The notes under the pieces were generated by a model. The model had not been told where the DNA came from. It was given only the letters and a program-made list of their open reading frames with translations, and searched no databases. From an uncultured delta proteobacterium (GTDB lineage Bacteria > Desulfobacterota > Binatia > UBA9968): a stretch of DNA of 64,000 nt. The stretch covers positions 96,001 to 160,000 of the forward strand of contig CAVUZH010000013.1 in NCBI GenBank assembly GCA_963745835.1, written 5' to 3'. The position numbers were made by a program, and so were the translations under genes. This document shows, one piece after another, positions 14,335 to 16,222 of this stretch. Each line of letters opens with the position of its first letter. Position 1 is the stretch's first letter.

Positions 14335-15090
14335 ATGGAAGAAGCAAAGCAGATTGCCGAATGGCTTGACGCGCTGGACCGGCCCAACAAGCAGATGCTT
14401 CGCGCCGCGGTGGACGGTTTAATCGCGGCGTTGCCGGACTCACCTGAAACGGGCAAGAATTTAAAGGACCTGCTGCGCGATTCACAGCGAAGAAATCGCT
14501 GGCCTATCGCCTACATCCTCGCCCACTTGCCTCAACCACCTGCCGAATCATTGGAGATCCTGCTCGATGCTCTTGACGATTCTGACCCAGACGTGCGCTG
14601 GGCCGTTATCTTACTCTTGGCACGCTTGACGAAGCCACAAACGTCAGTAATGGAGCTTACAACATCCCTAATGGCCACCGGCACGGCGACGCAACGCCGC
14701 ATGGTCATCTATTATCTAAAAGAGTTGAAGCGTCAGAACGAAGCTGTTCGACAGGCGCTGTTATCCGCGCTCAACGATTCGGATCCCATGGTTAGAGTTG
14801 CGGCAGTGATCAGCTTGAAAGAACAGGATGTGGATTCGGACGGTAAAACAACTTTATTGGACTTGCTGATGCGCGATCCTGATGTTCGGGTACAGCATGC
14901 GGCGGCGATCACGCTCGCAAGCTTAGGGTCACCGTCCGAAGAATTTTTATCGGCTCTCGATCATGCCACGAAAAGTGCACAGGGGCCGTTGAAGAAGGCT
15001 GCCGTCGCCGCGCAGCGTATCCTCCAGGAAAAAAAAGAGGTCCGTCCCATTAGGCGACTGACGTCGCCGGTGGGACGGACCCCGAGTTAA
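14335..15090 (+). CDS. HEAT-repeat protein
   Basis: Repeated LDDSDPDVRWA / LNDSDPMVRVAA / LMRDPDVRVQHAA units. Confidence 0.85.
   Translation: MEEAKQIAEWLDALDRPNKQMLRAAVDGLIAALPDSPETGKNLKDLLRDSQRRNRWPIAYILAHLPQPPAESLEILLDALDDSDPDVRWAVILLLARLTKPQTSVMELTTSLMATGTATQRRMVIYYLKELKRQNEAVRQALLSALNDSDPMVRVAAVISLKEQDVDSDGKTTLLDLLMRDPDVRVQHAAAITLASLGSPSEEFLSALDHATKSAQGPLKKAAVAAQRILQEKKEVRPIRRLTSPVGRTPS
15029..15083 (-). terminator. Intrinsic terminator
   Basis: On the minus strand GGGGTCCGTCCCA pairs with TGGGACGGACCTC, enclosing a GGCGAC/GTCGCC hairpin, followed by T8 (15036-15029). Confidence 0.88.
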
Positions 15091-15156
15091 CTTCGGTAGA
15101 CTGAGGGGGATTGCTAGGCTTCAAGCTAGAATCCCCGTCAAAGATCCACTTGAAGC

Positions 15157-15201
15157 CTAAGTCTCAGTCACCTCGCAGACAAAACAATTATCATCAATCA
15201 T
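15157..15201 (-). CDS. Micro-ORF, 14 aa MIDDNCFVCEVTET
   Basis: ATG preceded by GAAAGGAGGTGGTCCAG-AC, ending in TAG at 15157-15159. Below the ORF-track length cutoff. Confidence 0.6.
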   Translation of the reverse strand: MIDDNCFVCEVTET

Positions 15202-15233
15202 GTCTGGACCACCTCCTTTCCCTGCTGATTTTT

Positions 15234-15262
15234 AGTTTAAGGAGCAAGGTGTCGGCTGTCAA
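15234..15262 (-). promoter_or_regulatory. Sigma70-type promoter
   Basis: TTGACA (15262-15257), 17-bp spacer, TAAACT (15239-15234). Confidence 0.8.
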
Positions 15263-15322
15263 CAGGGAAGTGTCGCACGCGGCCAATTTTCACACGCGGA
15301 TGAATCGCGAGGCGATAAAGAA

Positions 15323-16097
15323 CTATGCCGACTGCCAGCCGATGAAACTGATCTGGCGGCCGGTTTCTTTTTTTTCTCGTCGATATGAAAAAAATTCATC
15401 TTTGGCACAGCTAGTACACGGACCGACTCGAAAGATTTGGCTTTGAGGAATGCCGGCGCGATGCAGAATGGTTTCATTTAGATTACGTAAATGAAGGTAA
15501 CTCTTATTATCTCTGGTCTCAATTGAAGAAGTTGCGAGTTCAGCCCATTGTTCGATCAACGGCTGCGCTACATCACGACCGATCTCATAGCAACACGAGT
15601 CAATTGACGGGCCAAGGGCAACTTCCAGCTCCGAAGGCAACACACCATAATTTTCCAGAAAGAATTTGACTGTCTTTGCCGGCGATTCCTTTCAGGGTTC
15701 CACGCCAGCCGGCGTGAACGACCGCGACGATCTTCTGTTCCCGAGCCAGGAAAAGCATAGGCACGCAATCTGCTGTTAGGACCCCCAGAAAAGTATTCTG
15801 CTCGCGCGTCGCCATCCCGTCGGCCTCGCCGGCTTCTTTGAGGTGTGTGTCTTTGACCTCGATCAGGCAATCGCCATGAACCTGCCTCATAGTAACGATG
15901 CGGCCATCATGGATTCCAACGGCGAGCTTCATATCACAGACGTTCTGGCTGACGATCTTGGCATCGTCACCGACGCGATAGGAAACATTGAGCCCGGCAT
16001 AAGCTCCGACGCTTTTGCCACCCTGCCGCCCCATAAAGCCGTGCAGTAAACCTCTGTCGTTTTCCCACTGCGGGACTTTCAACCAGTTGATTTTCAT
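15323..16097 (-). CDS. pgeF: PgeF/YfiH (purine nucleoside phosphorylase, laccase-domain) protein; frameshift near 15670
   Basis: QVHG, ADG, LTADCVP and HAGWRG lie in ORF 15600-16133. GPSIDSCCYEIG, CTSC and FFSYRR lie in ORF 15323-15643. Confidence 0.9.
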
Positions 16098-16222
16098 ACC
16101 GGGTATTATGTTTGGATCGTCCGCGCGACGCAAGTCGATGAAGAAACCCCGGGCCAGTTATTCACTCTTGCATTGTGGCCCAATTTCGCCGAAATATACC
16201 CCGATAGCTTCGGCAGTGCTAC

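Follow-up and report, generated by a model that had tools for sequence, protein, structure and literature searches.

The minus strand of a 64,000-nucleotide (nt) stretch from an uncultured delta proteobacterium of the Candidatus Binatia lineage (assembly GCA_963745835.1, contig CAVUZH010000013.1, positions 96,001–160,000; this whole stretch is called the window below) carries an element that is a stand-alone transcript of about 200 nt, equipped with a promoter, an extended Shine-Dalgarno (SD) region, a 14-codon open reading frame (ORF), a structured domain and an intrinsic terminator. Two mutually exclusive helices in the structured domain, proposed in an initial annotation of the sequence, proved to be both conserved and both affected by compensatory changes: helix A starts with the stop codon of the ORF and helix B hides a motif, AAUYCC. 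We tentatively regard this 3' domain, found in a mini-mRNA of the kind represented by the catalogued RNAs rreB and Ms_IGR-5, as a two-state element set by the passage of a ribosome, a reading which in our estimation falls a little short of an even chance. The parts involved are as follows:

15222–15225, minus strand: 5' arm of helix P0 (GCAG), pairing with CUGC 15178–15175, which includes the Cys codon UGC 15177–15175
15157–15201, minus strand: micro-ORF with its UAG, read from the sequence, with conserved frame, stop position and stop identity
15163–15172, minus strand: 5' arm of the outer helix P1, GGUGACUGAG, formed by the final ORF codons
15095–15105, minus strand: 3' arm of P1, CUCAGUC-U-ACC, anti-SD-like, which could alternatively pair with GGUGG of the true SD
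15114–15160, minus strand: helix A hairpin, with a lower stem (15159–15149 with 15125–15115) and an upper stem (15147–15140 with 15136–15129), starting at the stop codon
15106–15136, minus strand: helix B, whose 3' arm bears the AAUYCC motif conserved across phyla

Helix A, the outer helix and helix B were each found on the minus strand at the coordinates first proposed for them. Helix A pairs UAGGCUUCAAG (15159–15149), the first three bases of which are the stop codon, with CUUGAAGCCUA (15125–15115) in 11 perfect pairs; P1 pairs GGUGACUGAG (15172–15163) with CUCAGUC-U-ACC (15105–15095), and helix B pairs GGGGAUUCUAG (15136–15126) with CUAG-C-AAUCCCC (15117–15106), its segment folding by itself at −15.3 kcal/mol. 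The micro-ORF runs from ATG 15201–15199 to TAG 15159–15157 and encodes the peptide MIDDNCFVCEVTET. The fold of the 206-nt transcript exceeds chance: its minimum free energy (MFE) was −86.7 kcal/mol compared to −61.0 ± 4.6 kcal/mol in 200 dinucleotide shuffles (z −5.6), none of which was as low, and the MFE structure includes P1 and helix A. The two helices clash in two ways, since B shares the bases of its 5' arm with upper A (15147–15140 with 15136–15129) and encloses the other strand of lower A in its loop, where a linker of 2–4 nt is left. A pseudoknot with A and B formed simultaneously looks sterically impossible, because this linker would have to span a stem of 11 base pairs.

Three families, f1 (to which the window belongs), f2 and f3, were distinguished in the window's order, and the helices were scored in an alignment (A1) of 30 distinct f1 sequences; two of its rows, L014 and L018, come from genomes flagged as unpublished, and no claim depends on either of them alone. 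Taken together, P1 and A were paired in 96.8% of the cells, with seven pairs changed on both sides (28 cells), a number of double changes reached in none of 500 shuffles, and slid controls were 24–54% paired. The 16 pairs of helix A were 95.6% paired and five of them had compensatory changes, one pair being A-U in 17 sequences and G-C in 13, and the 10 pairs of P1 were 98.6% paired, two of them with double changes. P1 was also present in the MFE folds of 32/35 f1/f2 cores, 12/12 f3 cores and 69/89 actinobacterial cores. The 7-pair core of helix B was 95.6% paired as well, three pairs being invariant, two showing one-sided variation and two a double change. In sequence L025, a B pair changed from A-U to U-A, and in upper A the base concerned no longer fits its in-register partner. 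Only the closest relatives of the window have the CUAG/CUAG extension of B; elsewhere CAGG/CCUG-type pairs are found in another register. Between the families helix B was compared by direct reading of the sequences, with no alignment counts: the arms are GGGGAUU and AAUCCCC in f1, UUGGG(G/A)UU and AAUUCCAA in f2, the outermost G-C pairs thus being replaced by U-A, and the counterpart arms in f3 are GGAAUUGA and UCAAUUCC. The covariation in both helices, proposed as a check in the initial annotation, is strong for A; B is conserved with few compensatory changes.

Alternative-fold energies allowed two mutually exclusive folds to be drawn in all three families, as had been suggested for the window. 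The f1 averages were −38.4 kcal/mol for P1 with A, −30.7 kcal/mol for P1 with B and −17.8 kcal/mol for the B segment alone; in the window, with the pairs enforced, P1 with A had −32.8 and P1 with B −26.4 kcal/mol at an MFE of −35.0 kcal/mol. Because A is about 8 kcal/mol more stable in f1, B would be essentially unpopulated in the free RNA and would need A to be held open. A ribosome was modelled as a footprint from −15 to +14 around the stop that was kept single-stranded. With this footprint at the stop, B became the predicted fold in all five f1/f2 sequences tested, and in the window (ribosome-constrained fold, L001) the freed 3' arm of P1 paired with GGUGG of the true SD. The idea that a ribosome would melt A and favor B is thus supported by predicted folds in f1 and f2; in the actinobacterial relatives B-type pairing is not general. 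In f3 the MFE fold of all 12 distinct cores consisted of P1 and a long helix, in which the last codons and the stop pair with the end of GGAAUUGA, a loop, and the start of UCAAUUCC, leaving AAUUCC free (−25.6 to −29.4 kcal/mol). The alternative f3 state, which pairs AAUUCC (−24.6 to −26.1 kcal/mol), was 0–3.5 kcal/mol above the MFE, and the two states overlap physically. In these models a competition between a stop-codon helix and an AAUYCC helix is predicted to be kept across the order despite different sequences. The AAUYCC arm paired with the interior better than its own shuffles did in 21/33 f1/f2 cores and in 12/12 f3 cores.

A cycle consistent with this bistability would begin with a strong promoter giving an RNA that uses its first bases to pair with the entire single-stranded 3' tail of 16S rRNA, leading to a tight capture of the 30S subunit. 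In the free RNA P0 (leader with Cys codon), P1 (SD-like with anti-SD-like) and A (from the UAG) would be closed and AAUYCC single-stranded. A ribosome translating to the UAG would open all three helices, the freed GGGGAUU could then pair with AAUCCCC, and helix B would form with AAUYCC hidden in it; after release of the ribosome the RNA would either refold or be degraded. By sequence reading, an internal SD-like GAGGUG (15174–15169) lies 6 nt upstream of the P-site codon when the UAG occupies the A site. In such a cycle the ORF would serve as a ribosome track and not as a gene for a functional peptide, and the output, as a best guess by analogy with rreB, might be a translation-dependent turnover or a gated access of a partner to AAUYCC.

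Several results weigh against this ribosome-set switch, and some of them favor a rival account, in which P0, P1 and A make up one static fold that serves to stabilise the RNA or to block a bound ribosome. The complementarity seen as B would then be a by-product, because upper A requires GGGGAUU to pair with its own, similar GAAUC, and AAUYCC would be conserved for another reason. Helix A is part of the MFE fold, and its mean advantage over B in f1 is about 8 kcal/mol (range −5.5 to +15.8). Most pairs of B do not vary and are hence uninformative on pairing, the double changes of B within f1 are thin (two pairs, each in a single sequence), and L097 has an uncompensated mismatch in this helix; the correspondence of segments between f3 and f1 is ambiguous. 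In Actinomycetota the motif is kept with no consistent partner (5/67 sequences beat their shuffles in the interior-pairing test, mean z 0.0), so that the switch may be a lineage add-on rather than the core function; the motif is also unpaired in the Rfam consensus of Ms_IGR-5. Shuffled versions are more paired in the free-RNA ensemble than the real motif, which fits an exposed motif and says nothing for B; ensemble pairing of the motif at or below the 10th percentile of its own shuffles was recorded in 1/31 f1/f2, 0/12 f3 and 0/60 actinobacterial sequences. Furthermore, rreB is only weakly translated (PMC5711450), and, since its extended SD suppresses translation, few ribosomes may reach the stop here. 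Finally, both the translation and the RNA folds in this organism are predictions. Against a static fold, in turn, stand the double change of B in L025, accompanied by an in-register mismatch in upper A, the swap of the outer B pairs from G-C to U-A in f2, and the AAUUCC-paired hairpin of f3, which is near-equal in energy to the stop-codon helix and uses a different partner sequence. Overall, we find the static account, the main rival, somewhat unlikely. As a separate observation, a subset of the mycobacterial sequences has an obvious partner of AAUYCC just after the 5' arm of A.

The micro-ORF, taken as translated in the initial annotation, behaves as a real frame. It was followed in 172 members chosen by a motif that fixes neither start nor stop: an in-frame ATG, GTG or TTG was present 4–14 nt after GGAGG in 169 of them, and the stop was located exactly six codons past the Cys codon in all 171 members read to the stop, the 172nd ending before it. 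The stop was TAG in 166 of the 172 members, TAA in four and TGA in one. The ORFs were 11, 12, 13, 14, 16 or 19 codons long, the variable part (11 to 19 amino acids) being N-terminal. Such conservation of frame and stop position supports translation, or at least an in-frame loading of ribosomes. The apparently conserved "CEV" codons can, judging from sequence comparison, be explained by RNA pairing. The wobble base of the Cys codon covaries with a leader base across phyla (A-U 76, G-C 58, G·U 9, U·U 1, A-C 0, in 144 of the 148 distinct members), standard pairs being present in 143 of the 144. This covariation defines helix P0 (GCAG 15225–15222 with CUGC 15178–15175), which also appeared in the RNAalifold consensus of 44 sequences of the order. 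The following GAG GUG codons, which form the SD-like 5' arm of P1, are invariant, including their wobble positions, the codon after them varies (Ala, Thr, Pro, Ser) in step with its P1 partner, and the last two residues differ between phyla. Because the CEV codons are accounted for in this way, it is probably translation rather than the peptide that matters, with selection acting on the act of translation.

The same counts bear on a nascent-peptide sensor of the type of TnaC and SpeFL, which act at a stop codon. In this case the C-terminal CEVxxx would stall release at the UAG, which is specific for RF1, and the stalled ribosome would keep A open. The fixed distance of these residues from the stop at an N-terminal length varying from 11 to 19 amino acids and the UAG stop in 166/172 members would suit such a sensor. 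It is nevertheless very improbable, as each conserved codon is accounted for by the RNA (the covarying Cys wobble, the invariant GAG GUG, the codon varying with its P1 partner), the two final residues are not the same in all phyla, and a downstream gene to regulate is missing. Three other functions of the peptide were considered and dropped: a precursor of a ribosomally synthesized and post-translationally modified peptide or a metal-binding CxxC peptide, since the first Cys is not invariant (e.g., MITKSSDCEVAET) and the conserved codons are constrained by the RNA; a type I toxin, since the peptide is acidic and not hydrophobic; and an arfA-like non-stop mRNA, since the peptide is far too short.

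The signals that make the element a transcription unit of its own are the following:

15234–15262, minus strand: sigma-70-type promoter with TTGACA 15262–15257, a 17-nt spacer and TAAACT 15239–15234, expected start at about 15227–15225
15204–15221, minus strand: extended SD region, GGGAAAGGAGGUGGUCCAG, pairing with the 3' tail of the genome's own 16S rRNA
15029–15083, minus strand: intrinsic terminator with a 13-pair stem (15083–15071 with 15049–15037) followed by eight U (15036–15029)

The promoter matched the consensus in 10 of 12 positions, and one such site was found at 0.9 expected in shuffles, so that the scan alone proves nothing; TTGACA-17-TAAACT recurs, however, at the same distance in the homologues whose sequence was read. 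The 3' end of 16S rRNA was read in the genome's own sequence (L177, small-subunit rRNA match of 1540 bits) and the pairing was read by hand: positions 15220–15204 form 17 consecutive pairs with the tail ending in GCGGCUGGAUCACCUCCUUUCU, 16 of them Watson-Crick and one a G·U at 15209, the longest perfect run being 11. At this position, most of the copies read (those of the order, most Actinomycetota and Terriglobales) have GGUGGUCC, which results in a conserved internal G·U in the SD/anti-SD duplex, while the perfect match to the anti-SD would be GGUGAUCC; the copies read from Streptomyces, Kitasatospora and Dehalococcoidia have the perfect A. The terminator was identified by folding and sequence reading, its long loop having made a simple terminator scan miss it. 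Its inner hairpin, in the terminator loop (15052–15062), holds GUCAGUCGCC, a near-copy of the 3' arm of P1, and RNAduplex favored GUCAGUCGCC as the partner of GGUGACUG.

The downstream neighbor is convergent (a HEAT_2 gene, 14335–15090, plus strand), and a Cu-oxidase_4 (YfiH/PgeF-type) gene lies upstream on the minus strand (15323–16133). In a genome of family f3 (L103:2190–2420), the RNA gene is located between the same HEAT-repeat and Cu-oxidase_4-type genes, which are convergent in both genomes, with an opposite strand relative to both of them. By this sequence comparison the small RNA gene is inverted in place in f3 relative to the window, which marks it as its own transcription unit. Together with the own promoter and terminator and the convergent downstream gene, this identifies the element as a stand-alone transcript. 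The Cu-oxidase_4 gene of the window is split into overlapping ORFs (15600–16133 and 15323–15643, matching profile positions 2–128 and 140–237), suggesting that a frameshift or a misassembly lies near 15600–15643.

A stable helix abutting the UAG and an SD-like motif upstream of the stop are also what would be seen if a helix or pseudoknot at the stop drove read-through or frameshifting, or if the two helices controlled the terminator and a downstream gene. The frame past the stop is not conserved, the next in-frame stop coming after 1, 3, 6, 11 or 14 codons or beyond the 20–21 codons read in the 30 f1 sequences. For this reason a functional read-through product, an option raised in the initial annotation, is unlikely. 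As to attenuation, helices A and B (15160–15106) do not overlap the terminator (15083–15029), and the absence of a downstream gene disfavors it, the next gene being convergent and the f3 inversion indicating an own transcription unit. Recoding and attenuation are extremely improbable here.

The stretch with the element was present in 14 DNA runs from soil and rhizosphere (eight studies) and in six soil metatranscriptome runs (six studies), the RNA runs containing about 0.6 of the sampled words compared to 0.88–0.96 in the DNA runs. Contigs were compared with the window in four of the six RNA runs. In three of the four the contig depth was 26–60 on the transcript side and 3–7 upstream (4–8 times), with a break at 15217–15231. 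Less favorable to the transcript as drawn, the fourth run gave a single contig of even depth across the whole region, and the high-depth contigs extend past the terminator, the transcript ends not being fixed by contigs. All four runs had zero differences from the window within 15075–15228, with 22 differences listed in 14884–15074 and eight in 15229–15413. Two runs from two studies shared one further feature:

15217–15218, minus strand: site where the abundant RNA apparently has its 5' end; in two soil metatranscriptome runs the high-depth contig stops here and continues as AGATCGGAAGAGCAC

The appended AGATCGGAAGAGCAC is presumably an Illumina adapter. This apparent end falls on the opening bases of the extended SD. 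It lies some 9 nt past the expected start, on the 3' side of the P0 arm, and gives a weak hint that the abundant RNA may begin at the extended SD and lack the 5' arm of P0, possibly because its 5' end is trimmed as far as a bound 30S subunit. Since contigs show neither strand, level nor true ends, the signal from the RNA libraries is to be taken as a hint only.

Within the order the RNA is nearly universal: BLAST gave a match in 57/61 genomes and in 37/37 high-quality ones, with one match per genome except for a single genome in which it was split over two contig ends. The same search against 251 genomes of the phylum returned only pieces of 21–28 nt outside the order. A relaxed motif applied to 151 genomes of the class found true copies only in the window's order (f1 7/8, f2 2/2, f3 8/8), its matches elsewhere in the class looking like chance ones within coding sequence. 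A motif scan of species genomes (extended SD, 18–48 nt, UGY-GAGGUG-NCUG) produced at least 119 stretches. Those listed were mostly from Actinomycetota, with the window's type carried by metagenome-assembled genomes (MAGs) of Candidatus Binatia and Deltaproteobacteria, and the others came from Terriglobales, Ignavibacteriales, Dehalococcoidia and Leptospira weilii; at least three matches (L059, L064, L066) were due to chance. A conserved gene neighborhood was not found across 10 loci from several phyla. In all four Terriglobales loci (L068, L080, L117, L159), the RNA is followed by a same-strand tRNA-Gly(GCC), with a gene for transfer-messenger RNA (tmRNA) about 1–3.5 kb away. The tRNA linkage is not general, being absent from 5/5 scanned loci of the order and from 53/59 scanned loci; the loci with a tRNA nearby were Terriglobales L159, three Kitasatospora (tRNA-Met), Aeromicrobium (tRNA-Arg) and the three further Terriglobales. 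Two single loci showed peculiarities of the inner domain. In L133 (Dehalococcoidia) the stop is UAA, and the AAUCC motif is in a local 8-bp hairpin beside the outer helix. In L087, an Ignavibacteriales-like copy from an unclassified 'bacterium' MAG, AAAUCCCAA is a possible partner of UUGGGG, which belongs to the 3' strand of upper A; the arms would follow each other as in the window, and the pairing does not beat shuffles.

Such a distribution might also suit a trans-acting or dual-function small RNA (sRNA), with AAUYCC or the adjacent CAG..CACC as a seed and the ORF as a secondary feature or a gate of the seed. The motif has an invariant sequence across at least five phyla and is single-stranded in the ground state, the relatives Ms_IGR-5 and CC2171 are catalogued as sRNAs, and the gene stands alone with no conserved neighborhood. 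A seed of 6 nt is, however, short, and the 17-nt SD and the conserved start, frame and stop position would not be explained by a pure base-pairing RNA, which makes this possibility improbable in our view.

The Rfam scan of 2.5 kb around the element gave two matches, both below threshold, and nothing else; tmRNA, tRNA or any other Rfam family was dropped accordingly. The match to Ms_IGR-5 (RF02471) had 23.7 bits at a gathering threshold of 45 (E 0.009 on 2.5 kb, 0.0064 on the whole genome) and was the sole one in its genome, and the match to CC2171 (RF01867) had 16.1 bits at a threshold of 75 (E 1.7). The Ms_IGR-5 threshold was reached by 12/12 actinobacterial loci from the motif search, one Dehalococcoidia locus and one Ignavibacteriales locus, and missed by two Terriglobales loci, L087, Leptospira and two other loci of the order. 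A reciprocal covariance-model search matched 95 of 100 loci, a circular figure, the loci having been chosen with a motif that is itself part of the model. In a control set of 14 named genomes, sub-threshold Ms_IGR-5 matches were noted in Caulobacter vibrioides and Thermus thermophilus, and Thermus may, by this sequence match, carry a candidate analogue.

The likeness to Ms_IGR-5 lies in the architecture. The window RNA aligns at full length (model positions 1–184) with the same order of parts (extended SD, mini-ORF ...CEVxxx-UAG, stem at the stop, AAUYCC, CAG..CACC, terminator), and the shared blocks, extended SD, UGY-GAGGUG-NCUG, a stop six codons later, AAUYCC and CAG..CACC, were found in this order, the family consensus of the P1 3' arm being CAG-N-CACC. 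The Rfam consensus differs in having no P1 and in treating the RNA as non-coding, and the inner domain of the window's lineage (helices A and B) is not shared by the family; in the passages accessible to us Ms_IGR-5 is merely listed. The Caulobacter sRNA CC2171 resembles the window RNA in its 5' GAAAGGAGGUGAUCCAG followed by a start codon, in a multi-stem domain closed by a helix reaching into the ORF and in a terminator, and differs in the ORF and the inner structure. The parts available on CC2171 report its expression in Methylorubrum, its function not being identified (bioRxiv 10.1101/2022.01.24.477521).

The closest description in terms of ribosome engagement is that of rreB (PMC5711450, Hahn et al., RNA Biol 2016/17). 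This small mRNA from Bradyrhizobiaceae measures 165 nt and possesses its own promoter and terminator, a small ORF (sORF) of 14 codons, and an SD whose 17 nt are all complementary to the 3' end of 16S rRNA. Its binding to 30S is strong, its translation is weak, and it becomes more stable when the start codon is removed; rreB adjoins a tRNA-Gly in Bradyrhizobium, its analogues are reported only in alpha-proteobacteria, and its function is termed elusive. Compared to the rreB/rreR genes so described, the window RNA is likewise a stand-alone RNA (about 165–200 nt for both) that has a terminator, a sigma-70-like promoter, an sORF (14–18 codons) directly behind the SD, and conservation within lineages at a variable gene neighborhood; the SD, which in rre genes and here covers the whole single-stranded 16S tail over 16–17 nt, is in the window RNA extended in its complementarity but imperfect. 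Measured against the rre features, it has 17 pairs with its own 16S 3' end including one G·U (longest perfect run 11, at least 16 nt of complementarity being typical of rre), 14 codons with the ATG 2 nt after the duplex, and both an own promoter and a terminator. The rre-like arrangement with GUG directly after ...UCCA occurs in some relatives from the order and in the Terriglobales copies, and an adjacent tRNA-Gly is common to rreB and to 4/4 Terriglobales copies. The differences are that the rre genes are confined to alpha-proteobacteria while the window RNA is from the Candidatus Binatia lineage, that the complementarity of the window RNA is interrupted by one internal G·U and its ATG lies 2 nt beyond the duplex, and that no two-state 3' domain, P0/P1 or CEV codons are described for rreB in the accessible text (PMC5711450). 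The likeness is one of description.

A different parallel is provided by attenuators of the trp-leader type, in which a ribosome on a short ORF decides which of two overlapping helices forms. The window RNA differs from them in that neither helix is the terminator and there is no downstream gene.

The literature accessible on rreB, Ms_IGR-5 and CC2171 contained no link between these families and no description of a two-state domain. Catalogued for more than 10 years with no known function, these RNAs have each been regarded as specific to a lineage and separate from the others. The actinobacterial family and the window RNA share one architecture recurring in several phyla, with the apparently conserved peptide explained by RNA pairing. 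We regard the element as a divergent member of this rreB-like/Ms_IGR-5-like class, whose two-state 3' domain is new relative to the accessible literature. More speculatively, and with a low probability in our judgment, it would be one lineage's version of an ancient ribosome-engaging riboregulator, with related copies in Actinomycetota, the Binatia lineage, Terriglobales, Ignavibacteriales, Dehalococcoidia and Leptospira, in which the ORF would encode nothing useful and the CEV codons would represent P0 and an SD/anti-SD mimic in P1. Such an RNA would load on 30S via the full-length anti-SD duplex, the passage of a ribosome would flip the 3' domain between exposed and hidden AAUYCC, and the RNA would report the free-ribosome or translation capacity to a partner. 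The 3' domain can, in this order, adopt either of two folds that are conserved and exclude each other; the choice between them should depend on a ribosome at the stop, and the class thereby gains a concrete testable mechanism, either a translation-gated exposure of a conserved motif or a translation-gated decay. Should this mechanism be wrong, the element would still be a well-defined structured small mRNA.

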